DNA from: Lama guanicoe | Taxonomy: Eukaryota | Assembly: GCA_013239625.1 (NCBI GenBank) | Contig: MU057343.1 | Span: 19,264,195 to 19,328,194 of the forward strand | Direction of reading: 5' to 3' | DNA: 64,000 bases | In this document: positions 559-60,230 of the stretch, piece after piece | Numbering within the stretch: the first letter of the stretch is position 1 | Layout of the letters: each line of letters opens with the position of its first letter | Made by a program: the position numbers and the translations under genes | The notes under the pieces: generated by a model | Told to the model about the DNA's origin: nothing | What the model saw: only the letters and a program-made list of their open reading frames with translations | Database searches by the model: none

Positions 559-723
559 TCCTTGCTCCGAACTCCAGTGTATGAAATGCTACACGGTGGA
601 CTGTGCTGTTTCCTACCAGCGATGGGATAATGGGAAGCTGAGTTCATGCTCAGAGACTTGCAATTGCCAACCAATTACCAAGGAATCAGACGTAATGGAA
701 GCGCAGACACATCATGAAAACAG
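559..723 (+). other. Candidate internal exon A (165 nt) of an unrecognised spliced transcript
   Basis: Acceptor tgcctttgcctctcag| and donor CAG|gtaacc. One frame (phase 2/2) is fully open: PCSELQCMKCYTVDCAVSYQRWDNGKLSSCSETCNCQPITKESDVMEAQTHHEN. Another frame has an ATG at 714 with A at -3. Confidence 0.4.
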
Positions 724-2714
724 GTAACCTGGAAAGGGAATAGGAAGTTTGGGACGATCGTTTCTGGCTCCAGTGACTAACATCTTGCAACTGGTGAGAA
801 GTAGGTTAATCGTGTAAACTCAGGGAGGCTCGGTTTCATAATGTCAAGGGTAATATTGCTACCTTTCTACCAGTTGAGATTTTTAAATGAGGTAAGTACA
901 TAAAGGAGTTGGTAGACAGGAAGCCCTTAGCAAATCTTGGTTCTCTCCTTTTTCACTTAAAATAGCAAAGCTACACCCCAAGTTCTGCAACAAAACCAGA
1001 TAAGTGTGTTTTTCACATCAGTCACATAAAAAGTCACTTTCTTCTCTCTTCCTTTCCTCCGTTTTTCCTTGTGTCCTTTTTCTTATTCCACCTTCCTCCC
1101 TCTTTTCTACTCTTCCCTACTCGTTCCCCTTATTCAAAGACTTAAGGTGGCCAAAGTATTAAAAAATGTTAACATCCTGCACACAAAAGATAATTTGACA
1201 GAATTAGAAACTTCACCTTTTAAAAATTAATCACCATTGTCACGACGATTAGTCATCTGATGAAGCATAAGTCAGATTTGTTAGGCAGACCTTTGGGGAA
1301 GGATTGCGGTGACCACACCTAAAGTGACTCTTTAAAGAACGTGCAAACGGGGAACAACAGTTCTCTCGGGAGGATAAAATTCTCTGTAGCAAACTGACGC
1401 GTGGATTTTAACTTTAGATAAAATGCTCTTCAAAGTTAGATTCCTTAAAGTGAAATCAAAGTGTTAGAATATGTACATATTCTAAGTCCTTTACTGTCCT
1501 TAGATGGGAATGTCTGTGTTAGTATTCAGGTTTGTTTTTGTTTTTCTCTTTGATCCTCTCTGCGTGGCTTTCACTAGTATGTCCTGGAATGGAACTGCAG
1601 TCACACAATGATTGACTTATAAAAAGGGACTGAAGGTGTGTAGGCACAATGAGGAATCAAGCTCCTTTGTCTTGGTTGAGGAGATGGTGAGGGCATCTGA
1701 GGATTTTTTTATATGAATTTAATTTTCTAGTACTTTTTAGCATCAGCAGCTGGGTTCCGGTAATTGAACTCTGATTACTGCATAAAGATGTGAAAAATAG
1801 ATGTTAATTAGATAAAATTGTCTGAAGGGAACAGCAACATTTGAGAAACCTGAGACCCAAGGAAGACTCTCTGCAAGTTTGTTTTAACAGGGAAAGCTTC
1901 CTTTCCTCGCCCCAATCCTCCTTTCTCCATCCTCTCCAAAGTCCTCCTACGAATCCTCTAACCCCCTGTCTGCCATGGTCCTGGCCGTGCGCCACAGTAC
2001 CAGGGCTGTTGGGATTGGATGCAGCTCACCGCCACCACCATCCCGAGGTCTCTGAACAATGAGACCAATGTTAAGAATATAGAAAGGTTTTACTGTTTCT
2101 CATGCAAGTAGAAATGTGGGGCTGTTCCAGATGAGAGAGTTGACTTTGTACTCTCTGGACCAGTGAGGGTGAAGGTCCCAGGCTGCCCTGGTGGGGCCTC
2201 AGGACAGAGGCTGCTCTGAGCTGCAGTCCCCAGCGACACCCCCACCTGGGTCCCTCTCCCCTCGTCCTGGGATTGAGGATAACAGCTCCTACTGAAGACC
2301 TTTTATTTCTCTGCACTCTCTTCTTAGGAGTCATCACAGGTCTTTGGAGAGAGCTTTTGGGTGGGTTTTGAGTGCTGGGGGCGGCGCAGTGCTGTGTAGT
2401 TTTGTAGACAGACAGGAAGGGGTGGAAACGTAAAGCGGAGTTAGTTTCCTACTAAGTTAGCAAAAGCCCACAGGTCCTGTTACTCACTAGGATGCTGTGA
2501 AAGTCCTTGACAAACCTGCAACACCTGCCACCTGACTGTTTGTTGTCACGTGGCATCGTGCACTTTTATTCCAGAGTTACCAGAGCACTAACAGTTCCCA
2601 GGGGAGAAGCACTGTTCTTCCTGTTCACTGAATAGAAATTCTCCACATTCAGTAGTTGGGTTTTACAAACAGGGTAGGTAATTAAAAATCATTAGATGCA
2701 TTTTATTTACTCAG

Positions 2715-2740
2715 AAGTTGAGACTGCAGCTCTCACTAAG
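2715..2740 (+). other. Candidate 26-nt micro-exon B
   Basis: Acceptor ttttatttactcag| and consensus donor AAG|gtgagt. Confidence 0.3.
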
Positions 2741-3334
2741 GTGAGTAAAGAGAAAGTTAATTTCTTGCTTTTTACTTTATTATTCAGACATTTGCCCTCT
2801 TGACCTTTTTTCCCTCATCAACCTCACTGGGGAATTCCAAGCCTCTTTAATGCTAGAAAATCCCCAAATGCTACTTGATTTTAGAAATCATTTGCGACAG
2901 TAGTCAAAGATGGGAGATTTAGAAGCGCTGTGCTAATTTATTTAGCAAACCTACCCCAGACCCTCCACATGCGTCATTTTGTTGCCAGAGAAGTTCTTAA
3001 AAATCCAGACTTCGGATTTGCATTCTAGGACTGTCAGAACAAGGACCTGGGGGCACTTGGTCCTCATCCTGTGTTTAGCTTTGGGGACTTTGCTGTGAAG
3101 TATCTAAATAATTATTTCTGTGGTCAGAGGCATGAGAGGGAAGTTCTGGGTGTCTAATCCACATTTCTAGTTACTGGCAAGAATTCAGTGATTCAGGTTA
3201 AGAAGTCAATACTGTGGTTAACGTTGTATTTAATGTGCCAGTCTTAGAATGTACTGTTTAAAGTCTCTCTCTTTTTCAAAGTGCCTGTTAGGCAAAATGT
3301 ATTTATTTGGTTTGGGATACCTGATCTACTGGAA

Positions 3335-3530
3335 GAGTGGTGTGCTGGTAAATGTTTAATGACCAGTTTTCCAAAGGGGAAGAAAAAAACCATTCTCTGG
3401 CCTTTGCTGATTTCTGTAATAAATACTTCCACCCAACCCCATATCTGACATTGTATTATCAGCACATTTATAAAATCTGTGAAAATTAACAGTTGACTCT
3501 TGCAAAGCTCGCATACTTTAGATCCAACAG
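3335..3530 (+). mobile_element. hAT-superfamily DNA transposon relic (MER63-like)
   Basis: Begins agtggtgtgctggtaaatgtttaa, resembling the MER63 terminus as recalled. Confidence 0.55.
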
Positions 3531-3914
3531 ACGTAGTAACTGAATCCTACTGCTTTGAATTAAATAGCTTCATATATATTAACTAGGGCAGTATTTTATG
3601 TATCGTATATAATGTTGTACGTAAACTTTGTGATCAAATGTAACATCCGCTTGTATTGTAAAAAAATTTGTTACTGAGTACAAAATACTGGTATGCCTCA
3701 TTTTACAAAACTGATTTTTTCGGAAGAGCTGCAAGTGAACTGAAAACTTCTCAAATTCTTTACCTAAGAAACTAACAAAATAGTTTTATTTGCCTGTCTT
3801 AAAATGAAAATTCCCTCACTTACAAATGTACATATTTCGGGAGCTATACAGTGGACTTAATCACGTGGCACTGATATTTGATAGGGCCTGTTAAGCTCCA
3901 TCTTAAGAACTGGA

Positions 3915-4140
3915 AGGCAGCACAGGCTAATATTAGGCCTGTGGGTTCTCGAGTCAGACTGGTTCTACTACCTACCTACTAAAATGAATGAAGTTGGAAA
4001 GTTACTTGTCTGCCTCAATTTTCCTTCTGTAAAATGGGATAACAGTATCTGTCTACTAGAATTGTCCCAGGCTCTGACAGGTTTAATACACGTAAAGTGC
4101 TTATAACAGTGCCTGTTACCTGTACTGACCACATGCTACT
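3915..4140 (+). mobile_element. MIR SINE
   Basis: Core tgcctcaattttccttctgtaaaatgggataacagta and 3' part taatacacgtaaagtgcttataacagtgcctg. Confidence 0.85.
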
Positions 4141-4224
4141 GGTTTTATGGCCACTGATGATGTATTCTGGGAAGACAAATGACCAGAGTTAGGAGTGTAG
4201 AACTGAATAAATGTTGCCTTAGAT

Positions 4225-4700
4225 GAGCTGTTCTCCAGGTAGGCAGCCCAGCAATCCTTGTTTTAACACGCCCTGCAGGTAAGTTGGCTGCACACTCAAG
4301 TTTGAGAATCACTGGTTGAGCTTACCACCAGGAGTTCCTTGAATTTGCATTCTTTCCAGAGGAGTTGACTGATCATCTGAGAGAGCTTGTTTAAAATGAT
4401 CCATATTTGTGCATAATATGAGAAAATACTTAAATGTCTTTGCCTGTATAAATAGCTTTGGAAGAATGCAAAGATGATAATGGTTACTTCCAGGGGAGGG
4501 AACTGAGTAGGTGGGAAGCCAAGGTGGGAGAGGAAAATCTTATATCTACTCTTGTCCCTCTTGAGTTCTGAATATAAAACTTAAAAATGTTAAATATTAA
4601 AATAAACATCTATAACAAATATTATATACACTATATTTAAAATACAGATTTGTGGGTTTTACCCCAAGTATATTAAATCAAAATCTAGCCTAGAACCTGC
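4225..4700. mobile_element. MER5-like hAT-Charlie fragments surrounding an old L1ME-type 3' end (~4400-4635)
   Basis: MER5-like cacactcaagtttgagaatcactg, gagcttgtttaaaat and aaaatacagatttgtgggttttacccc. The intervening aatggttacttccaggggaggg...ggtgggagagg resembles an L1ME 3'UTR. Confidence 0.5.
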
Positions 4701-4939
4701 CCAGAGTATCTATGCAGCTGCCTTGGTTATGATAAAGGCCCAAAGGCAGATACGTATCCACTGCTGATTCCCATAGTGTAAGTATTCCCACCGTGGCCAA
4801 CGTGCAGCTGTGCTGGTGGTTTGATGGTAGGGGAATGCTCTCTACAGGAAAAAAGGGACGTCTCTGTACGTGGAGAGGTGGAAGGCGTTATTAATGCCTT
4901 TATCACTTGGGAAGCCTTTGTGTCGGGTAGGATATTATT

Positions 4940-5110
4940 GGGACTCTGAAGTAGGAGAGTTGGGGTCTATCTGATCCTGCCACTCACTGGGTAAGAGTCT
5001 CATCTTTTCCATCTCTCAGTTTCCTTATCTATCAAATGGGGACATTAATAACTGTCGTACTTAATCACTGGGTCAAGTGGGATTAGATTCAACAGCATTT
5101 CTAAAGCGAG
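4940..5110 (+). mobile_element. MIR SINE
   Basis: Core tctcagtttccttatctatcaaatggggacattaata. Confidence 0.75.
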
Positions 5111-5174
5111 ATGTTAATTCCATCGGGCTTTGATGGACTGATCGCACATTCATGACATTTTAGTAGCATTTCAG

Positions 5175-5214
5175 ATTGAGTTGGGACAGAAATCTCTTCT
5201 ACGTCAAGAGGGAG
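5175..5214 (+). other. Candidate 40-nt exon C
   Basis: Consensus donor GAG|gtaagt. The acceptor catttcag| is weak and has competing upstream AGs. Confidence 0.35.
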
Positions 5215-6593
5215 GTAAGTTTCTAAATAATTCTAAAGTTGTACAAAACTATGTCTAAAAATCTACTTCTACCAGTAAGAAAATGCAGAGGCGATTAATT
5301 GCCCGTCTTTAATCCCATTCAGGCTGGACAAAGTATGTGGATTTCACAGTATCTCTAATATTATTGAGTTTATTATTCCAACAGGACTGGACACAGTTGA
5401 CTAAAATTGATCTACAGTGCCCTTGCCAACAGAAAAGGCTTTATCTGAATTATTAATTAGCTGCCCACACGGGCTGTAAAATTGCCACATGGGACCCTGC
5501 CCAAACAGAAGAGGGATGTGAACGGAGTGATGACTTGAGAAATGAAACAGAACGCTCCCGGAAGGGGCTTCCCTGCCGGGCACACGACCTGCCTCACAGC
5601 GCTTTGGTTGCGGCAGGTGAAGCTGGCCTCCGAGTTTGACTACCACATGGAGAGCTGCAGCCTCCCCACCGAGGGCGCTGCCTGGTGTCAGCCTTGTGGG
5701 AAGGAGAGTGGACTCATTCTCACAAGACGTTCAGTCCTTCTCCAGTTGTGAACCAGAGTCCCTTCTTTGCAACAGAACTGTTACATCATGGCTAAAATTA
5801 CCCCTTCATACTTAGGCACATCCAGAGTTTTTGTTCCCATAGAGTAATTTTTGAGATCAAATGATCTAAATTTATAAAACCCTTAAAAAATAATAGCTGT
5901 CATCTATTATATAGATACCGTGCTGGGTTCCTTGTATCATCTCGCTCACTCCTCAACTCTGTGAAGGAGGTACGGCTGTCATCCCTGTTTGGCAGATCAA
6001 ACGCTTGGTTCTCAGAGCCCTTAAGAATGTACATGATGCCACAGGCTCAAAGCAGGTCTGGTTCTGTCTGCTGTACTTTTATCCCCCACACAGTATGGCC
6101 CCCAATTTCTAAAAAAAGACTATTCGAACATCTTATTTACACTTTTTTTTTTTAAGATTTAAGTTGTAGGAAGTAGATTCATTAAGTTGTAGGAAGGTAC
6201 AAACCTAAATGTTGTAGCCTTTATACAGTTCTCAAGAGAACAGATGCCAGGCCAGGAGGCAGCCTAGCTGGAAAGGAATTCTTTGTGTGACAGGAATACA
6301 CTATATCCTGGACCACTCCCATGATATTTTGCAGGACTTCCAGTCTAGTTTTTGATCGAAGTTTGGTTTCGAGCACAGAAATCTGTGAGAAATCCCATGA
6401 GAAGATTCCATGAAGGCAGCAACAAAGACTCCTGTTTCAATTGACTTTTTATGTAAATGGAAAAAAATGAATTGGAAGCTCACACCTGAAAATTTGTGAG
6501 AGGCGCTCTCTCAATAATTAAGCAATATTCAGAGACACAGACTCTAGGAGCCATGCTAACATCTGGATTTTGTCTACCTGTTTTCTCTTGCAG

Positions 6594-6678
6594 AAAAGCA
6601 GATGACCAGAAGCGAGAAGTTCGGCTCACAGTCACACCATAGACACAGACACAAAGGTGGGAGGCGTCACTCCTAACG
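6594..6678 (+). other. Candidate 85-nt exon D
   Basis: Branch point tgctaac (6554-6560), long pyrimidine tract ending ttttctcttgcag|, donor ACG|gtaagt. Confidence 0.6.
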
Positions 6679-6870
6679 GTAAGTATGTACTGAGGGTTAA
6701 ACCTCCCGGACAACTGGGGAAGCGTCACCTGCTGGGAACATTCGTGCCCTTGCCGTAACTAATTCATGACTTCAGGAGATAGAGAACTTGGAGAGCTCCC
6801 GACAGTTTTTTCTGTGGCTTCTCCTTATCTCCTCAGTAGAAAATTCTGTCTTGCTTTTGCCCTTCCCCAG

Positions 6871-6946
6871 GTTACCATGACTCACCGACTACCAGTATAA
6901 ACACAAACTCTTCAGGAGCATCTATTACCAACCATAATATTCGAAG
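6871..6946 (+). other. Candidate 76-nt exon E
   Basis: Acceptor ttctgtcttgcttttgcccttccccag|G and donor AAG|gtgagt. It lies 192 nt after exon D. Confidence 0.6.
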
Positions 6947-7789
6947 GTGAGTCTTGACATAGCCCCGGAAGACATTTTGTTAGAAATAAAAAAAGCAGTG
7001 TGAGTGTGATAAACAGCAGCACTGTCACTGTATACTTTTAAAATATTTACTACTGTGTTACTGAAATATTTAAAGTGATTATCTGAACCGCTCCACATCA
7101 CACAGGAGCCTGAACATGTCAACATCCAGCACAACTCTCTGACAGTCTCACTTCGACACCGTGCTTTCCAGAAAACAATTCATGCCAAAGAGTGACTGGA
7201 ACAGGTTTTCATAGGAAAGAAATAGATCTCCAATTAAAAAGTGCTGAAAGTCAGCATTAAGAGATGCGGCAAGCTGTTTGCCCCAGATCCCGGCTCCGCA
7301 AATAAGCGCCAGTGGGCATCGGTGAAAAAGCGTCACCTTTGGTTCAGTCAAGTGTGTGTGTGACTGCTGTTAGCGCCCTCTTCCTGGTCCGTGTCTCCGG
7401 AAAGGACATGCAATCAAAGAGCCTTTCTGACCTGGCCACCCTGTACGTGTTCTTTGTCTCTTGCACCCTTTGCTTCTAGACAGGATCTAAGAGCACTTCA
7501 TCTCCAGATTCAGCTTTGACATTGATTCTGTCCTGAATTCTAAAACCTTTTCAGGCTCCTTTAGCCCATAAATGAGCCGTCTTTAGCTGAACTGTAGTTC
7601 AGTGCAGCAGGTACTTTGGAGGGACATTGGGGACGTGGCTGAAGACGGACCGAGTCGGTCCTGTCGGCTAGATTTTATTTGTAACAGAGTCTCTCCTGGG
7701 CTGATTTCCTGTTTTTAATATCAAGTCTAGCAAAGAGGCTTAAGACACCGATGAAAAGTCCCCTAAAACTCTCCTCACACATTTTGCTA

Positions 7790-7975
7790 AAACTAATGCT
7801 TCAGCCCTTTACACAACATCTAACAGGCAAGGAGAACATACCTTCCGTTTTACAGGGGAACCCAAGGGCTTAGAGAAGTCACTTGCTCCAGGTCGAGCAG
7901 CTGCCGAGTGGTGGACTTGGAATCTGAACATTGGTCAGTCCAGCTCAAAACACCATGCGCTTAACTGCTGAACCA
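7790..7975 (-). mobile_element. MIR SINE
   Basis: Reverse-orientation core ccgttttacaggggaacccaagggcttagagaagtcacttgctccaggtc. Confidence 0.65.
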
Positions 7976-8428
7976 GAGACAGGAAGTACACTTCACACTG
8001 TGTGACACCTCTAAGCCGCGGGAGTGGCTGCCTGCTGAAGCGCGGGGCTGAGGCGGCCTCCCAGGCTGTGCGTGTGGGCTCACGGGGAAAGGGGGTCAGA
8101 TCCGTTAGTGCAAGGGCAGCGGCAGCCCTTGCGCCACTTCCATTTTACTGTCCCCCAAGTCACTAATCTTTATGTCCTATTTCAGTTTCTGACGGGTCTA
8201 ACGTGTGGGAAGACTTAGGGTGCTCCTGGGTCACCCTTTCCCTCGGTGACCCTGGGGTAGTCACTTAGTCTGTTTTTCATACACGACCTGAAGGAATTAA
8301 TTGGATGGTCTTTAGCATTAAAAGGTTTGTGTGTAAATATGTGTCTTAAAATTATTGTACCAACAAAGTAGTTTTAGAATTATCCTGTGAATTTTGTTTT
8401 ATGTCATTTTATATTCCCTTTCTACCAG

Positions 8429-9020
8429 TCATCTGCCAAAACGGAGAAAGAAAAGAGAGGCCCGACAAACCGGCCCTGCCTGCTCCTCCCGCGCACCTCT
8501 GCCGCGCCGCAGCGCTGTGGGAGGACGTTCCGCCGTGATCCTTGGATATTAAGGACAATAAGAAAATGAAAGAGACCCCGTCATAACAGGCAGAAAACTT
8601 GTTACCACATATCAAAGGACAAAGGTTCACAAAGGATAAACTAAAACCAATTCTTTCTCAGAATTAAGCCAGCCGAACCCTTCATAGAAGTGAGAACCAA
8701 CTGAAAACCAGTGTTGTATTACGTCCATAAGTGTGGTTCCTGAGAGGAAGAACCTCACGAGGGAGTTACCCTCTCTCACTCATTAGAGAAGCTGGATTCC
8801 AGCTGCATCCAGTGTTGCCATGTGACGGGGACAGGCCCTGAGGAGGTACGTAGTGCCTATTTCCAGCCCTACTTATTGAGAGTGCTTTAGCTTCTGTTTC
8901 ACTTGGTGGCAAAAATTTTGTTTCATAACTAAGAGACAAAGATGCAAAGGAAGGACTGCTGTTTAGTCAGGAGGAATTAAAGTATGTATAGTAATAAAGC
9001 CAGCACGCAGCAGAGGTAGA
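8429..9020 (+). other. Candidate terminal exon F with polyadenylation signal
   Basis: Acceptor ttttatattccctttctaccag|, CpG-rich start, AATAAA at 8993-8998. The 3' end is approximate. Confidence 0.3.
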
Positions 9021-26720: not shown

Positions 26721-29700
26721 TCTGAGCCAGTCGAATGTTTTTCTTATCTTATTTGCAACTCTTTTGGAGGCATTACGAACAGGGAAAATGGCAGGAGCAT
26801 TGCAAAAGAATTCTTTAAAGCAGAGACAGTATCTAGCAGAGAAGAGGAAGCACGAGACAGGCAGAGAAAAAGAGCGGATAAGTGGATGCTCTCCGTTACT
26901 GGTTCCTCTTAGTTGAAACCGAATCATTATCTACAAGAAGCTTCCAGTCCAGTTAGGGAAAAAAATAAAAAAGAGCAAAAAAAAAATGTTTATGACTTCC
27001 GTGATATTTTAAGAAGACCAACTCCAAGTGATAAGAAGCTACAGAAATCTTCATAATTAATAAACGATGCTACACGGGTATCTGATGAAAACCTGCTACC
27101 CCATAATCACAGTAGTTAAAAATGAAAGTTAGACCATCATCTGACAGTCAAGTCTACAAAAGCTTGGCTATTTCCCTCTAGTAAAACTTTCATACCCTTT
27201 GAGAGGGGGCACTTTTTGCTTTGCAAGATACAGAGCTGAATTGAGGCAGAGCTCACACATCAATTAGACTGAACATTACAACATGAGTGCTACCGACGTG
27301 AACAAGCCATGAATGTACATAAATGAGTCCTGGGAGCATGTGGTGTAGCCAGCTTGATGTTCCACTATTGTTTTTGTCCACCTTGAACTCACAGTCACTG
27401 CTCAATATATAAATTCTCTTTCCTTTCTCTATTCCTTTTTTCCTTTCATATTTCAACTTATTTTAACATACGAGAAATATACGTATGTGTGTGTTTAGAA
27501 TCACTAACTAGACAGAAACTCATGGCTTTTTTTCAAATCTTTAATAGCAATTTGGATTCAAATTTCTACTCACATATAGGAAAATGGCATACCCATGCCT
27601 CTAAAATTCATCTGTTGGCAAGGGGTCCTCAATTAGAAAACACTCCAAGTGAAAAAGCAGAAACAGACTTTCTAGTTGTGCCAATTCATTTATGTGTGTC
27701 CTGTTAAAAACCACGTAAAAACATTAAAGGAAATTTTTGAAAGAGAAAAAAAATTCATTCTCATCTTTGTATTGTAACTCTCTCCATTTGTCCATGTTTC
27801 CATTCAGTGTGTGTTTATATGCTTATGACATTTTTAAAATAGTTGAAATCATGATGTGTCATGCAATTTTTCTTTCTATTTCGGTTATTTTGCATATTAT
27901 AGGCATTTGTCATGCTGCTACGGAGTCTCTGTCAGGGTAAACAAAGCCAGGGTCCACATGGAGAGATGTAAGTACATGGAAACTTGGCTGGAACCAAGTT
28001 TGTCTCTTTTGAACATCAGTACATCAAAACATTGCGGAAATGCGAATGCAGTTGGTTTCACAGTCATTTTTAAAATTACCCATCTGATAAAAGGGTGAAT
28101 TTGAACCGACTGAATGGATAATTTAATTCAACGGTAACATGTTTTCTTTTTAAGGACAATGAAATAACGGAATTAGCCTTCAGTGTGAGAAATACAATTT
28201 GTATGACGTTCGTCTTGGAACTTTGGAATCTCTAAGTTTTTATTAACCTAGCTTTTTGATACAGTGCATTTTTTTTAAGATGAAGTATTAATCTAATCCT
28301 GTTTAATAGGAATTAGTCACTTCCTATGATTGGTTCTTGGATCCTTTGTTTTTTAAAGACACTTTAATTGAAAATAGCAGACAGAATTAAAGTGTATTAT
28401 ATTTAAATTTAGTGTGTTGGTGACTAGACAACAGACAATTAGTTCCTTAAAGGTAGGGATTTTTGCCTGATTCATTTTTCTTGTCTTCCCAGCTCACAGC
28501 ACATTGTTATACGAATAGTATGTGATTCATAAAAGTTCAATGAACTAAATTGATCTTAGCTTTAAAATAGTCAGTTACCCGGGGACATATCATCCGATAA
28601 ATCCAAGCCTGTTTGTCACCTCAGTTCTGACACTAGATGAGTGATCCAGGGCATTTACCACTCAGTGTTGCTGGTGGAACATATACACTGGAATCTGAAG
28701 AGCCATTACTTTGAGTCCTTTTGCCATTTCAGTCCCACATTAAATCAATTAACTGATTTGACTCCGGGAGGATTCAGACCACGTGGCATTTTATATATTC
28801 ATTTTGCTTAAAGTCACTTTGAGTTTGTGCATGTTCATTTACCATATAAAGAGTGTATATGTTATGCATTACTCAAGTCAGAAAAGAATTCCAAATTAAA
28901 CCTGCGCCCTGCCGCGCGCTCTCAGAGGACGGCTCCCTCGTCACGCCTGTCTCAGCCTGTAGTCCTGTGTCCGTGTGGTTCTCTGGTTACGGCGTCTCCC
29001 CCAGAGCCTGTAGTGACCGTAAGAGCAGGGCATCTGCTTCTGCATTATTTTATCCCTAGAGTTTGGCACAGTCTCCGGTCCACGGCGCACATTCAAAAAA
29101 GGCAGCTGAACAAATTACTGAAATCCAAGGGCAAACAGAACTTGAGCTGAGTTTTGAGGACAGGTGAAAGAACTGATCTAGGAGCAGGGTGAGAAAAGGA
29201 CATCCAGGAGGGGGACGGCTTGAAATGGGGGTGTGGGTCGGGGCAGGAAGACTGAGGGAGATCCCTGAAGAATTACTCGTAATACAGCAGGGGCCCCTGT
29301 GTCTTAGCAGCAGGCGTGTACATAACAGGAGTTCCTTCCAGAAACGGGTTTGCGTTTTTCTCTGACATGATTTCTAAAACCATCAGAAGCTCAGTGGCAC
29401 TGAACAGGCACGGACACGCGAGGCTTGCTTCGTCGGACACGCGCAGCCAGGCTGCCTCTGCTGTGCGAGAGGAGGACACGTCCGCCTGCACCACGTAGGC
29501 CGTGTTGCTGGAGGTGGCTGGTTGCTGTTTCCCGCGCTGGAAAAAAAGGACCACCTTCCCCACGGCGCTTGACTCTCACCTGCATAAACCTTTTACCGCC
29601 CGCAGGGTCTGATCAGCTGAGATCACACAAACTCAGGGGTCCTCGGTCAGACGTTTTCTACTCTCCTACCGTGTTCTGTGTCCACTGTGGACATTTCAGA

Positions 29701-32700
29701 AGTTTGGAATGTGTGTAACCATTTTAATCTTAGGTAATTTGATTACCATACTTCTTATCCTGGTCTGGTGAGGGAGTAAATAATTATTTGCTAACTCCCC
29801 TGAGATGACATCAGAACAAAGTGAAGATTCCGCAGTTTTCCTCACGTCTCATTTTTCCTCTTCTCCCTCGCTTTTTCTTGACAGTTCTGTTTCCCATCCT
29901 CCATCTTCCCCTAAGTTTATATTTATTTCTCCACACATTCCCTGGACATTAGGTGTCCAACGTCCCAAACTGATGTACTTATTTTGTATGTGGAAAGTTT
30001 AATATTTACTTCTTCCCTAAGTTTTATTCAAGGAACGTGGCGGCCCCACTGGGCTACGGGCCTGTAGGCCGGTATATTTTGAGTGCGTTGTGTTTGGGTG
30101 ATTTCTGTCTGAGATGCCTCTCAGTTGCTGGGGGAAGTAAAATGGCAGTGAGTTTGGATATATCTTGGCTATATTTTCAATACATCATCCTTTATTTTGA
30201 TCGTAGCTTTGACTGAAATGCATTCTGCAAATCCCCACCTCTCCAGGGCAACCAAGTGAAAGCAGAAGAAAAAGTTTCCTGAGAAAGCATCCAAAATGCA
30301 TAGATGGCCTTAGCATTTTGAGATAGTCAACCTGGCCCAGGATTCCTTCTTTGTCTGATTTCTATTAAAGCTATTAAGAATGGATTCAGTGGACTGCACT
30401 TCCTGTCTATCTTCCTAGAGATGTGAACCCTGGGGCATCAGAATCATATGAATAGGCCTGTATGTACTGATAAGCAATTATCACTGGGGTAAGAAGAATG
30501 ATAAAGTCTAGGACTATCGCAGGGCAAAGACATTAAGATTTATTTCCAGTGTTATCAGGAGAGCTTTGCTAGCCATGCAAAGCTCCTTCTGGGAGAAAAA
30601 AGAAAGAGAAAAGCATAAGGGTAGATTATATTCCTTGCAAAAATTTATCAATCAAAACAAGAAACTCTGAATGCAAAATTGAAACACAATCACAAAGTCA
30701 ATTTTAAAAGTGGGGAAAATCCACAGAAAACATGGGCCTTCTGAAGATTAAAAGGAAAAGATCCTCACCTAGGAGTTAAAAAAAAATCCTTACCAGAGAT
30801 TAAAACAGAGAGGGGCTATGATAGGGAGGAAATGTGAAGAGACTGCTTTTATAAATGATCTGGGGCTGAAATAATTTATATGGCTTATATTCTGCCATTG
30901 AGTGCAAGATGGAAAATTTATAAAACTGTATAAAATGCCTTGCATTAGATCAGAACTATAAAAAATGGAACACAAGCTCAACTCCAGGGACTCAGTGAGG
31001 TTTTTTTAAATTAGGAAATCCAAGTTGTCCATGAAATGTAATTTTAATCATAAACTTGTATACAAATTCCAACTAACATATTAAACTACAGTATCTTTTG
31101 CCCTAGTCAGTCTTCAATGATTTCTCAAGGAAAGATGAAAACTCTATTAGGGAGCACTCCCTACTATATGTTCTTTCTTAAAGGCATCCTGTCTGAAATG
31201 AGAATTTCAAGTCATCAGCCAGTTCAGGAGCTAACTAGCAGATTAAGGAAAGCTAAAGTGCTTTATCACAGTCAACCTCCATGGTTCACTGTCTCAAATG
31301 CCTTCCACTGAAACGCAACAGCAGGGTCCAACAGATATTTTTGACTGAACAAACTTTGATCTGATGATCCACATGTACTGAGTTAGTCTCATTCATTTCA
31401 TTCCTTCACTCATTCATTCATGCAATAATTATTTACTGGACACCTGCTATGCGTTAGGCACTGGAAAAAGTGCTAGGGATGCTCAAGTGAGTAGACAGAT
31501 AACACACCTGCCCTCTGGTGACTTGTCATATTGCAAACCTGAATTTCACTAGTCTGCTAGTTTGCAGTTAAATTCTTTTCCAAAGCTGGGAACTCCTTTT
31601 TCCAAACAAAATCACTCATAAAGCACAGAATAACAGACTCTTATAGACAGAAAGGATCTTAGATAGATAGAAAAATAGCTCAGGAGCGGGTCATGTAGCT
31701 CTACTCCTTAACCTAAAAAAGATGTGAAATCTAGAGTCCCAGGTCTTATAGTCTGCGTCACGACGACCCTAAAAGCGGGGAAATGATGACACGCACGATG
31801 ACAATGGAAACCTAAGAAAATGCTCCACAGAAGAATTGAAAATAATTGCACTGGTAGGAGAGATAGGCAGGAGAGGCAAAAAGACAGAGCCATGCTGACA
31901 AGAGCAAAGAAACTGTCCAGGACCAAAGAGAGGCTGCAGACTCCTACTCCAGAAATGAGTTGCCAACCTGACTGCAAAGATGTTCTTTTCATTGTTATCT
32001 CTCCAAAAAAACAAAAACAAAAACAAAACAAAAACAAAAACCTAAACAAAACCCCACTCATCTTTATTTCTGGAGGCACTACTGAGAGTGAAAAATCAAG
32101 TGTCCCTCGTGGACCCTCTCTCAGTCACTATGTGCCCTTATGACTAGGACAAAATGTTGGGGAAAAAAAATAGAAAGGAACTGATTTCTATCTATTTTAC
32201 AGCTAACTTCCAACAAATTTACTCATACCTATTAAAAATCTGTACAACTAAAACCGCCATTTCCTAAATGTAAAAATCATCACATTTTGTTTCCATAACA
32301 ACCCTCTGATGGCTGGACGGACAATGACACCAATTTCTATTCTACTGGTGAGAGCAACACTTGAATCAAGAGTCAAAAGATAGCAAGATTATAGACCAGG
32401 TTTTCTGGCTCCTGGTTTGGTCTTCCTTCTGTCGTATCACAGAGCCACTCACCAACAGCGCAGCAGGTGGGCTCTTTGTCTGTGATAACATTCATGCAGC
32501 ATCTCCCGAGGAGCCCGAGCAGTGAGGATGCTCAGTGCATGTTTACTGAATAGCAATTTCTATCTGGCAGACAGGGCCTTTTATTACATATTTTAATCCT
32601 GCTCCCAGTTTTTAGTATTTGTCAGCAAAATTACTCCACCCCACTTTCAAGAGAGGCCTCCAAAGCTGGGTAGGTTTTCTGTGAAACCTGTGAAAAGGGA

Positions 32701-45136: not shown

Positions 45137-45285
45137 GGGGAGGGTATAGCTCAGTAGTGGAGTGCATGCCTAGCATGCATGAGGTCCTGGGTTCAGTACC
45201 TCCATCAAAAATAAACTTAATTACTTCCCCCCAAAAACAAATAAAAAACACCAAAATAAACAAATGAAAGAAAATATTTTTTTAA
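45137..45285 (+). mobile_element. Camelid-type tRNA-derived SINE (vic-1-like)
   Basis: ggggagggtatagctcagtagtggagtgcatgcctagcatgcatgaggtcctgggttc has Pol III A/B-box-like elements and is followed by an A-rich tail. Confidence 0.85.
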
Positions 45286-47212: not shown

Positions 47213-48804
47213 TACTAATTAGGAAAGAGGTAGTGGATTATTTGAATTTTTCTTTAAAACTTCTCTGGATGGTTATTTTCCTACTTAAAATAAAAACATT
47301 TTTTTCCTGTTGTCTAAATAAGCCCCCTTTTCCCCCCACCCATACACATACACATACTCACATGAATGCCTATATAGGTTTTGCATCAATTTCATCACTG
47401 GCTAATGGGAATTGTTAGCTATTTTAGAGATTAAAGACACACTTCATGGGGGTGCTGTGAAGATTAAATACAATAAGGTGTGGGGAGATTTCAGAACAGT
47501 TCCTGGAAAGCAGACCTTATTCAAAAAATCGTACTTATGATTAATTATTAATGTGCGATTATATGGCTTAGAGAACATTTTCTGTTGGTTGAATCAGGTT
47601 GTAAGCCAGAGAACAAAGCTTAAAGGCACAATAGTTCCACAGCCCCTCGAGAAGCAACAAGGTTCCTATTGAAGGAAAGTATAAATTTCCAGTGATGAGC
47701 ATAAGAAAATGAGCTTGGAATCCAAGAAATCAGAGAGGATGATGCCAGACCACAGATCAGAAGACAAGGAAACATACAATCTCTAAGGAGAAGGTATTCT
47801 GACCTCTAAAATCTTCTTTATACTTCAGGCCACAACTGGCTGTCACTGAAGTTGCCAGTAAGGCCAACAGTTACGGGGAAGGAGTAATAGTGATAGGTGC
47901 GAACTTGGCCATGAATGAATCATGTTCAGCACCAACTGGGATATGAGAAGACACTTTCCTTGGGTGAGGCCATTCCTGCAATTTTGACATAGGAAGTGCA
48001 TATTTACTTTTATTTTAATTTTGTTTCAAATCATGTGGAATTTTAATTAATAGATACAGTCGATACTTACATATTGACTAGTAAGCAGAACACCCTAAAT
48101 TAACAGACTCACTGTTATTTAAGGAATTAATTTAGAAAATGCCTTACAAAACTCCTGAGAAATACAAAAAGTTTATAATGGCACCCACTATAGAAAAACA
48201 AAAGGGCCCAGAGAAACTTCCCTCATTTATGAGCCAAATACCTGGCAATCACAAATAAGTAAAATGGCTTGGAAATGCAAAATAAGAAAGCATTGCGCAG
48301 CCAATGTGCATCGAGTATCTAATAGCAGACATTGAGCGTGCAGGGTCCCGGGATCACAGCCACCCTGCAGTCACTTCAGTTCGAGGGAAAAAGTCACTCA
48401 CAGATTTTTCTCTGAAGCTAATTAGTATTAATTGAGACATCATTCTAGCATGTTCTGACTCTACCATACATTATAAACAAGAGACCAGAATGTAGTTTGA
48501 GAAGGTGGTGCTGGTAAGAGCAGAAAGTGACAGGGACGAGTCCATTACCGATGGAGGAATGGAAAATCTGTAAAAGGCAGACGTGGATTCAAAATAACAG
48601 TGTGAAGTTGTTTAGTTCCATTTCCAAAACATTATAAAATCACATCTTTCTTCCACAAATGTGGAAACAAATCAGAATAATGGACCATAGCATTACTTTG
48701 CAAACTAGTCATGCTTCCTTCTCACCTCAGACACTCGGATTTACACCTTGAGGTGCAGGTAGGGCCTCAGGTAAGGGTTGGTAATGATGCCTCTCAATTC
48801 ATAG

Positions 48805-57650: not shown

Positions 57651-60087
57651 CATGAGCTTGAGAACGAGAGGATTCGTGAGTGCAGGCTTTCCTCGGCTAC
57701 TCCTAGAAAATGAGCCTGTGATTTCATTTTCTGGGATGATAAGAGGCATTTTAGCCTAAGCAACCCAACATGTATGATGAATTTAACTTGAGACCATGCC
57801 AGGACAGACATTTATCATGGTTCATTTAAGTAACTGTTCATTAAGTAGCTGGGGCAAAGGAAATCACTGTGAGACCAGAAAGGGTCTCTAATGAGAAAAA
57901 GAGAGGGATGTGGCAAACCAAGAATCTGAAGTACTGGGAACATGTATTATAGAAAATTGTAGAGATGTGTACATGATCACATTCATAAATTTTAAAGCAC
58001 AGCTTATAAAATTAATAATAGACGTAGTAGTCCAGAGCAGTGTTGAAATCACAGAAAAACACTCCCACAAACAATATATATACTTTCAAAAAAACACAGG
58101 CTTTTTACATGTATTTTTCAAACACGATGCAGGATAGTCTCAAACCACAGCAATCCATGAAAATTCCTATTTGTTTTCTGTATTCACTTTTCTTAGACAC
58201 CATGGTTACTTGCTTCCTAGTATTTTTCTTCAAATCTCTTCTGAATGAACTTTTTGATTTTCCTTTTCCTGTACTACGATTCTCCATGACTCTGTACCAA
58301 AAAGAGCGTGGCATCAAGAGAAGGCAAGGCAGGGGGGAAGTTTAGGGCAAAGCCAGAACCCTTTTAATAGCAATGGGAAGAGGATTTCGATACATGAACG
58401 ACTATTCCTCCCCTTCTCAGAATCAGAAAAGTGGTAGAGGCTGCCTGCCCGCGGGGCCTGGCCAACCGGGCATTCATAAAGTCTAACTGTCCATACATGT
58501 TCCTCAGTGGAATAAGGCTGTGCCATTGGTTTTGAGAAATTAGGCTAACGACAACAAAAAAGATCAATAGATTTGACTGTCATTAAAAAAGTTTTTAAAG
58601 CTCTTCATAAAAAATTTAAATGTAAAGAGAACCTCAGATTTTTATTTGGGCAAAATGCAAGAAAAACAACTTACTGCATACACATTCTAACTTACAACGG
58701 AGGCACCATGAAAGGTGGGGTCAGGGAGGGGAAGTAATGGAACGTTTCCCAGGGGAAGTGTCTCCTAGGCTATCTTGAAGCATAAGAGATGTGCATATGT
58801 ATGTACGTGCATGTGTGTGGGGGGGTTATACAGTATGAGTAGGACACAATAAAAGGGGTCTATTCTGATTGCCCTGAGTACATTAAAGTCTTTAGAGCCC
58901 TGAGTGTTAACAGCCCCACCTCTGGATGCTACTCAGAGGAGGAGGGGATGAGAATTTTCGTGAGTTCCTGGCATATTCTCTCTGAGTAAGTGAGGGCTAG
59001 TTCAGTCATGGTAAGTTTCAGTTCCTGATGTCATCTGGTTAGACACAACAATTTAGTCCTTCAATAGACTACTAATTCAAATTTGGTTCCTTAATAGACA
59101 CAAATGCTAGTGCCCCTCTTAGCTGGTCCTGGGGCCTATGAAGAGGTCCATTTCTGCTGTCTTTTCTCTCAGGAAGTGCTCCTCTCTGACCCACTCACTG
59201 CCTCGTGCCTTCTGCTGAAACATCAGCTCCACGGGGTTGCAGACTGGCTCCTCTCTACATGTTTGCCACACTCCCTGAAAATGGAAACTTTCTTAGAACA
59301 TATGCCAAGCCTGAGCCCCTGTGCTAATCAGCACACGATAAGGTAAGCTATTTTATTTTGGTCCTGGGAGATTTTTCAAAACCAATTTGCTACATTCCTT
59401 GCATTTACAGTGTATATCAAATGCTGAATTATTATCACTCCATTCCTTACAAACTTTAAATTTTGCCTTCTTTCCTGTTACTTTTTGTTGATGTTTGCAA
59501 AACAGATTGATTCATTAAAAGTTAGTTGTGGTGTTTTCAATTCCTCTCTTAAGAATTTATGAGATTGCAGCAAAAGCAAACTACTAATAATTTGCCTTGA
59601 ATAATATGGCATGGGGTTTGACTGGGAAGACTTTGCTACTAAAAATGAACCCAGATTTCAAAAACTGCTGAATTGGAAGTTTCCTAGCAATAGCCCAGGA
59701 TAACTTTCTTTCCAGCTTTAACTGGTTGTTTAAAGACTGCTTGAAATCTTTTTTTTTTTTTTCCTTTTGGCAGGCATCTCACTACCTCACAAGACAGTTC
59801 ACTCTGAATTGTTAAGACACTTTTTCTTTGTACCTTTAATGAAAAAAATTCCTTCTTCTTGATAGGTTCATGGCAGTTTCTTTCTCTATGTTGACAAAGT
59901 GGTTTATTACGCAGCTCTTTATGATAATTCTATTGTTCTAATATTTATTTAATGCTGCCAACCTCAGATATTGCTGCTGCTGGCTACCGCCCAGTGAGTG
60001 CCCACAGTTCAATAGCGGGTTTGCCTATAGTGTCTCTAAACCTTAAGCAATATTCCTAGGAAAATTAATGAATTAATTAATGAATTT

Positions 60088-60230
60088 ATGTTTTGTTTTT
60101 CAGGGGGGAGGTAATTAGGTTTATTATTTATTTATTTATTTAATTTATTAATGGAGGTACTGGGGATTGAATCCAGGACCTCGTGCATGCTAAGCATGTG
60201 CTCTACCTCTAAGGTATATCACCTCCCCCC
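60088..60230 (-). mobile_element. Camelid-type tRNA-derived SINE (vic-1-like), second copy
   Basis: The reverse complement ggtagagcacatgcttagcatgcacgaggtcctggattcaatccccagtacctcc...(taaa)n aligns with the 45137 copy. Confidence 0.85.

Follow-up and report, generated by a model that had tools for sequence, protein, structure and literature searches.

C9orf72 is an ALS gene and LINGO2 a neuronal gene. Both human and mouse are known to make divergent RNA at the C9orf72 promoter, and the source for this calls the function of antisense transcription there unknown (PMC6260478). The human antisense RNAs C9orf72-AS1, AS2 and AS3 are reported, in excerpts of two papers, to be unspliced, ∼1 kb in length and present mainly in myeloid cells (PMC4832459, PMC6614138). 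A further study reports LINGO2 as the only close neighbour whose linkage to C9orf72 was kept in every species examined (PMC5822839). Our literature search found no LINGO2 antisense RNA in print; database annotation may already list an uncharacterised locus. Here we describe spliced exons that lie opposite LINGO2 within the window, by which we mean the whole 64,000-nucleotide stretch of DNA that was analysed.

Splicing observed in a close relative

The RNA evidence consists of assembled contigs from a close relative (∼94% identical) and not from the window's own species; the counts cover four RNA runs, runs with small shares having been left out. In three of the four (X1, X5, and X12, from three studies), exon A was joined to exon D and exon D to exon F, with GT-AG ends on the + strand, and these ends had been predicted beforehand from the sequence. 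Loose contig ends ahead of exon D matched 694-721 at 26 of 28 letters in all three runs, and those behind 6678 matched from the first letter of exon F at 28 of 29 letters (X1) or 29 of 30 (X5 and X12). The overlap on the A side was 28-30 letters, against a mark of 31 letters for calling a bridge, and the contigs on the F side extend for ∼430 letters, the first 30 of which carry the matching. Neither join was present in the contigs of run X7. Since assembled contigs drop rare forms, this blank run, like the missing spliced cover of exon E, is no proof of absence.

As the preliminary description of this DNA had proposed, a real spliced transcript enters from upstream on the + strand, and exons A, D, and F form its 3′ part; the three together measure 837 bases, which makes the spliced RNA, seen in the relative, longer than 200 bases. 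The remaining members of the proposed six-exon chain, B, C, and E, are skipped in the observed joins: the joins 5214>6594, 6678>6871, and 6946>8429 were absent from the contigs, and exon D joins A and F directly. The predicted acceptor of exon A (9.6 bits) implies more exons upstream of it, although no read connected A with any upstream sequence. The minor alternative form (Table 1) was found in one low-depth contig of X12, at 29 of 30 letters.

Contig cover on exon D ran from 6597 or 6599 to 6678, and in the RNA of the relative this exon starts with the counterpart of letter 6599. Here the acceptor scores 13.0 bits at 6594 versus −0.1 at 6599, and because 6594 outscores 6599 here, the relative probably has five bases fewer at the exon D acceptor. 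The intron after exon D is present in the relative, since an unspliced X5 contig crosses 6649-7010. The unspliced contigs of X5 (depth 2.7) and X12 (depth 5.5) carry T6948A, whereby the exon E donor of the relative reads GA, not GT; spliced pieces have depths of 130-230 in X1 and X5 and of 18-23 in X12, contig depth not being an expression measure. Exon E may go unused or serve as a lineage-specific cassette exon.

Table 1. Features of the transcript and candidate exons in the window
Feature	Position	Strand	Remarks
Exon A, internal	559..723	+	Donor 723 used; single copy
Exon B candidate, unsupported	2715..2740	+	Weak acceptor, 5.1 bits; bypassed by the A>D join
Exon C candidate, unsupported	5175..5214	+	Weak acceptor, 3.4 bits; no contig joining it to D
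Minor alternative exon end	6466..6495	+	Weak donor 6495 (3.0 bits) joined to exon D
Branch-point-like motif TGCTAAC	6554..6560	+	Ahead of exon D; sequence only
Exon D	6594..6678	+	Covered by the relative's RNA contigs in 3 of 4 runs, each side flanked by loose ends
Exon E candidate	6871..6946	+	Highest-scoring sites of the set; the relative's D>F join bypasses it
Exon F, likely terminal	8429..9020	+	Loose ends behind 6678; single copy; 3′ end approximate
Poly(A) signal AATAAA, predicted transcript end	8993..8998	+	Sequence; step in base skew between +9 and +23 kb

Splice sites were scored with an approximate, untrained weight matrix. Acceptor and donor reached 9.6 and 7.8 bits for A, 5.1 and 12.2 for B, 3.4 and 11.6 for C, 13.0 and 10.3 for D, and 15.3 and 12.2 for E; the acceptor of F scored 8.8. 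All six blocks with their AG/GT ends, the TGCTAAC motif and the AATAAA signal were indeed found where the preliminary description had placed them, and a genome search (skipping common words) returned one match for each block; none was among the regional self-repeats. The acceptors of B and C are weak, at 5.1 and 3.4 bits. A second poly(A) signal, ATTAAA, is located at 8976. An origin as exonised repeat or retrocopy was rejected, the exons not being multi-copy; very old repeats could escape the search.

The density of paired splice signals had also been called unmatched, and the 8.5-kb tile with the exons does hold the maximum among 122 tiles (both strands, 524 kb), namely three pairs of at least 22 bits, one of which uses acceptor 5020 instead of 5175; 98 other tiles contained no such pair, 22 contained one, and 1 contained two. 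This tile, however, was picked beforehand for its signals, and six strong donors in some 8.5-kb stretch correspond to chance expectation (P = 0.61). A loose threshold gave 444 + strand candidates in 124 kb. We rejected signal density as proof, strong donors alone not being significant after allowing for the place chosen.

Position opposite LINGO2 and strand footprints

The LINGO2 coding exon, the part of that gene that was mapped, encodes a protein of 606 amino acids and lies 14-16 kb upstream of the exons on the minus strand, and its splice acceptor, 35 bases ahead of the ATG, faces the window. The GT-AG ends place the spliced RNA on the + strand and LINGO2 is on the −; given the strand and upstream location of that coding exon, the RNA is antisense to LINGO2 and probably intronic to it. 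The preliminary description missed both this position and the lack of coding signs. Large genes often harbour spliced antisense RNAs, and by themselves these exons are nothing unusual; the A>D>F RNA is a common kind of gene, notable for its address.

The exons and CpG island of C9orf72 are located at −310 to −323 kb. Base skew (TA+GC) was analysed after repeat masking by self-BLAST, which covered only 10% of bases, with a bootstrap that treats blocks as independent. The masked skew was −0.066 to the left of the C9orf72 island, +0.054 and +0.078 over −309 to −27 kb, +0.049 ± 0.016 over −13.7 to +9.1 kb, and −0.050 beyond +64 kb; it stays mostly negative for ∼1 Mb rightward. The best-fitting steps fell at −305 kb, at the C9orf72 promoter, and at +17 kb (bootstrap, 9-23 kb), the latter range adjoining the poly(A) signal at 8993. 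Near the left step, + strand donors are found at −308.9 to −307.6 kb. A linear, replication-type skew fitted worse than a step by 46 AIC units; moving the step from near the poly(A) site to the 3′ end of LINGO2 lowered the fit by 12-14 log-likelihood units. A-rich repeats favoured the minus strand by 13 to 4 inside the unit versus 9 to 14 to the right of it (Fisher P = 0.027), and AATAAA was rarer on the + than on the − strand inside the unit, a bias that is partly the T skew signal itself.

Such strand footprints mark germline transcription, according to part of an earlier study (PMC1391917), and those seen here suggest one germline-transcribed unit of ∼320 kb that crosses the LINGO2 coding exon and whose start we infer. 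Skew cannot separate one long unit from several tandem units. Part of the left skew step could stem from replication, if an origin is located at the C9orf72 island.

Our leading reading, to which we give roughly an even chance, is that the exons are the spliced 3′ exons of a likely non-coding RNA opposite LINGO2 that probably starts ∼320 kb upstream, at a two-way CpG-island promoter of C9orf72. RNA polymerase II would fire outward from the island, traverse the gene desert in the germline or in reproductive tissue, and pass the LINGO2 coding exon in antisense; a few short exons would be spliced within the LINGO2 intron, with termination predicted at the AATAAA signal of position 8993. If the unit has an effect, it would most likely act in cis, through transcription that meets that of LINGO2 head-on or through a promoter shared with C9orf72, and not via a protein. 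A scan for testis transcription-factor motifs found no CRE or RFX sites upstream and MYB-like sites at a background-looking rate, and was uninformative. In its fullest form the proposal seems rather unlikely: here one spliced germline RNA of ∼320 kb, driven by the C9orf72 promoter, would cross the whole LINGO2 coding exon and end in the LINGO2 intron, coupling two conserved neighbours, and other mammals, including humans, would share this unit.

The same spliced non-coding antisense RNA could instead arise from a nearer promoter, without any need to involve C9orf72, and this we regard as a tentative but real possibility. One candidate start is a second CpG island at −157 kb, which has + strand donors directly behind it and adjoins a multi-copy repeat; positive skew, however, sets in at −305 kb and has a value of +0.054 ahead of that island. 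Another is a site in the LINGO2 intron within ∼14 kb upstream, where 13 strong + strand donors cluster at −12.7 to +7.3 kb (P = 0.004, for an interval chosen after looking), among them those of a good exon candidate at −4255..−4209, but the 60 kb upstream contain no CpG island. If the start at C9orf72 is true, a long divergent unit overlapping LINGO2 would provide a concrete, testable link between C9orf72 and LINGO2, with a defined 3′ end.

Coding potential

The A>D>F RNA is likely non-coding, judging from its reading frames. The longest ATG frame, a cysteine-rich frame of 49 amino acids in exon A that is open toward the 5′ side, equals the background median and is reached by 50.5% of 2,000 random pieces; none of the three frames stays open through exon D. 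Searches with the exon A frame against 1.84 billion proteins, a collection that includes mammalian RefSeq proteins, returned two chance matches to repeat proteins, with no homologue that was longer or of similar length, and there was no atlas match. Four exon frames gave no Pfam match, the frames of exon F having been compared with Pfam only, and 559-9020 gave no Rfam match at gathering score. A metagenome scan for host DNA yielded two short chance matches (10-13 residues) among 46 candidates, which were set aside. A conserved protein-coding gene was rejected, with no open frame across the joined exons and no real homologue of the exon A frame.

A small or lineage-specific protein gene that uses the open frame of exon A appears improbable. 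A direct A>F join would stay open for 95 codons and A>C>F for 114, and an A>F join would not be visible in the stretch compared with RNA. Still, 18% of 1,050 random 165-base pieces carry an open frame, the isoform actually seen stops two codons past the A>D join, where the frames of the two species would differ by five bases, and the database matches are those given above. Transcription only in the relative, with a silent copy in the window, or joins that are assembly artefacts would be compatible with RNA that comes entirely from a ∼94% identical species, with the short overlaps and with one blank run in four, yet we consider this very improbable, given that both joins, with their GT-AG ends, recur in three studies, that all splice sites used by the relative are intact in this genome, including the strong D acceptor, and that the skew footprint was measured in this genome itself.

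Comparison with described transcription units

On our preferred reading of a start at C9orf72, the A>D>F RNA would share its promoter with human C9orf72-AS1, AS2, and AS3 and mouse Gm12367, which lie on the same strand, as far as described in part of PMC6260478. The human RNAs are short and unspliced in the account excerpted from PMC4832459, whereas the RNA described here is spliced and ends ∼320 kb away in LINGO2. It resembles the mammalian multi-exon natural antisense lncRNAs, as portrayed in sections of PMC6614138, in being GT-AG spliced, in lying opposite a protein gene without coding evidence and in an exon use that differs between relatives. With large non-coding units of the LOC401237 type, as presented in part of PMC1391917, it shares long introns and few short exons, and in both cases the evidence came from skewed base composition, the orientation of repeats and a bias in poly(A) signals. 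What differs is that the unit proposed here ends head-on within another large gene, whose only coding exon it would span.

RNA joins and splice signals

The spliced antisense RNA is real, and three of the six exons proposed for it in the preliminary description are supported by joins in RNA. A run search returned RNA matches recorded mostly as "reproductive system metagenome" (11 to 29% of words) and, at 87 to 96% of words, six runs for which no kind is recorded. We compared four runs from four studies (X1, X5, X7, and X12) over window positions 6545 to 7010, for which X7 yielded no contig. In X1, X5, and X12, contigs span exon D and continue past both of its ends. The sequence preceding D matches the end of exon A (694 to 721) in 26 of 28 letters, and that past 6678 matches the beginning of exon F in 28 of 29 letters for X1 and in 29 of 30 for X5 and X12. 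Both matches were made by eye. The partner exons lie outside the compared interval, which leaves the joints table empty, and the A-side overlap (28 to 30 letters) is under the tool's 31-letter mark. Both skipped segments start with GT and finish with AG on the plus strand, which is thus the strand of the transcript. An unspliced X5 contig across 6649 to 7010 demonstrates the intron after D in that organism; since it differs from the window in 20 of 361 letters, plus three gaps, the RNA comes from a relative rather than from Lama guanicoe.

The six-exon chain originally proposed thus holds for A, D, and F, joined in three of the four runs, whereas B, C, and E are absent from the joins seen in X1, X5, and X12. 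Because the donor of E reads GA in the relative (T6948A; X5 and X12, low depth), E could serve, if used at all, only as a cassette exon of the window's lineage. In the relative's RNA, D begins at the counterpart of 6599, five bases past the acceptor first assigned; given scores of −0.1 bits for 6599 versus 13.0 bits for 6594 in the window, the simplest reading is a shared acceptor, offset by a 5-base difference between species. A weak donor at 6495 was joined to D in one low-depth X12 contig. Six exon D bases within a short repeat (6641 to 6646) are missing from the relative's RNA in X1, X5, and X12, and the X5 and X12 contigs both end ∼430 letters into exon F (window ∼8860), with a donor-like site nearby at 8845.

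In the window, all six blocks have the AG and GT ends described, with a branch-like motif at 6554 to 6560 and AATAAA at 8993, and each is single copy in a genome search. By an approximate weight matrix, the sites of D and E, previously called near perfect, rate excellent, those of A and F score well, and B and C have weak acceptors (5.1 and 3.4 bits, respectively). The density of splice pairs had been considered unmatched: the plus-strand 8.5-kb tile does top 122 tiles (three high-scoring pairs; next, two), but it was a selected tile, and the chance of six strong donors in some 8.5 kb is high (P = 0.61). Such density would not alone settle the transcript's reality. Strong isolated plus-strand acceptor-donor pairs also occur 3′ of the poly(A) signal.

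Features in and around the window (negative values, upstream of the window)
Feature	Position	Strand	Remarks
Exon A	559–723	+	
Proposed exon B	2715–2740	+	
Proposed exon C	5175–5214	+	
Exon D	6594–6678	+	
Proposed exon E	6871–6946	+	
Exon F	8429–∼9020	+	
Isolated acceptor-donor pairs	29606–29767, 48731–48770, 59173–59342	+	
Weak Rfam tRNA match	45140–45204	+	32 bits
Weak Rfam tRNA match	60152–60223	−	37 bits
GC-rich segment	53500–54100		strong minus-strand exon candidate, 53864–53815
Exon candidate, 47 bases	−4255 to −4209 (L001:5745–5791)	+	strong; in frame with exon A
LINGO2 coding exon	13.7–15.6 kb upstream (L002:4429–6246)	−	intact, single, 606 aa; open frame, 615 codons
Second CpG island	−157 kb (L018:2550–3200)		
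C9orf72 exons	∼315 kb upstream (G000:C12519:18.94–18.955 Mb)	−	CpG-island promoter at −310 kb

Genomic setting and start of the transcript

The LINGO2 frame contains LRR and Ig domains, with LINGO1 as the closest solved structure, and its product clusters with proteins named LINGO2. A splice acceptor lying 35 bases 5′ of the ATG places the upstream LINGO2 exons towards and beyond the window, and exons A to F would be intronic to LINGO2. The GC-rich segment may represent a 5′ exon of LINGO2 or an alternative promoter; the weak tRNA matches are probably heads of tRNA-derived SINEs. The C9orf72-LINGO2 order agrees with that reported in PMC5822839.

Strand footprints mark germline transcription, according to PMC1391917 and PMC2927911. 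TA+GC skew was calculated over 724 kb in 349 masked blocks of 2 kb (only 10% of bases masked; blocks assumed independent). It is negative to the left of the C9orf72 island (−0.066), positive between −309 and −27 kb (+0.054 to +0.078) and still so between −13.7 and +9.1 kb (+0.049 ± 0.016), and negative again past +64 kb (−0.050), with 17 of 20 samples negative farther right. Of the two best-fitting steps, one (−305 kb) coincides with the C9orf72 promoter and the other (+17 kb; bootstrap, 9 to 23 kb) falls just 3′ of the poly(A) signal. Steps outperformed a linear trend by 46 AIC units, and placing the step at the LINGO2 3′ end instead cost 12 to 14 log-likelihood units. Clear A or T bias was found in 43 of 51 long repeats; the ratio of minus- to plus-strand A-rich elements was 13 to 4 within the proposed ∼320-kb unit and 9 to 14 right of it (P = 0.027), three repeats left of the island being omitted from this test. 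Part of the left step could come from a replication origin at the island, and skew does not distinguish a single unit from several.

These footprints suggest a start at the C9orf72 promoter, exon A itself having no linking reads upstream. Most likely, polymerase II would fire outward from the island; transcription would cross the gene desert and then the LINGO2 coding exon in antisense, A, D, and F would be spliced, and the transcript would terminate at 8993. Splicing, strand, neighboring genes, and skew are observed, and we infer the tissue, as we do the start, continuity, and function; any role would be in cis, and a by-product is equally possible. A start at the second CpG island competes with that at C9orf72: this island, a possible second promoter, consists of a multicopy repeat (40 scored matches) and, after it, unique CpG-rich sequence bearing plus-strand donors. 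Thirteen strong plus-strand donors, including that of the 47-base candidate, cluster in 20 kb (−12.7 to +7.3 kb), and candidate and donors likely represent further exons of the A-D-F RNA.

Coding potential and related RNAs

The A-D-F isoform comprises 837 bases. A small protein, possible via a hypothetical direct A-F isoform (open for 95 codons) or via exons upstream of A, is disfavored by a longest ATG frame of 49 aa, matched or exceeded by 50.5% of 2,000 random window pieces, and by the exon A frame, which had no real relative in protein searches of a collection including mammalian RefSeq proteins. That frame meets a stop two codons past the A-D join, and none of the three frames is open through D. 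No Rfam family matches the transcript.

No LINGO2 antisense RNA was found among the papers listed in literature searches. The A-D-F RNA belongs to a common class, spliced antisense RNAs, and its interest rests mostly on the possible link between LINGO2 and the ALS gene C9orf72. Divergent RNAs from the C9orf72 promoter are described as short and unspliced in human (AS1-3; PMC4832459, PMC6614138) and as Gm12367 in mouse (PMC6260478). The A-D-F RNA does not fit the short, unspliced description given there for AS1-3 and may be a long form arising from the promoter of these divergent RNAs.
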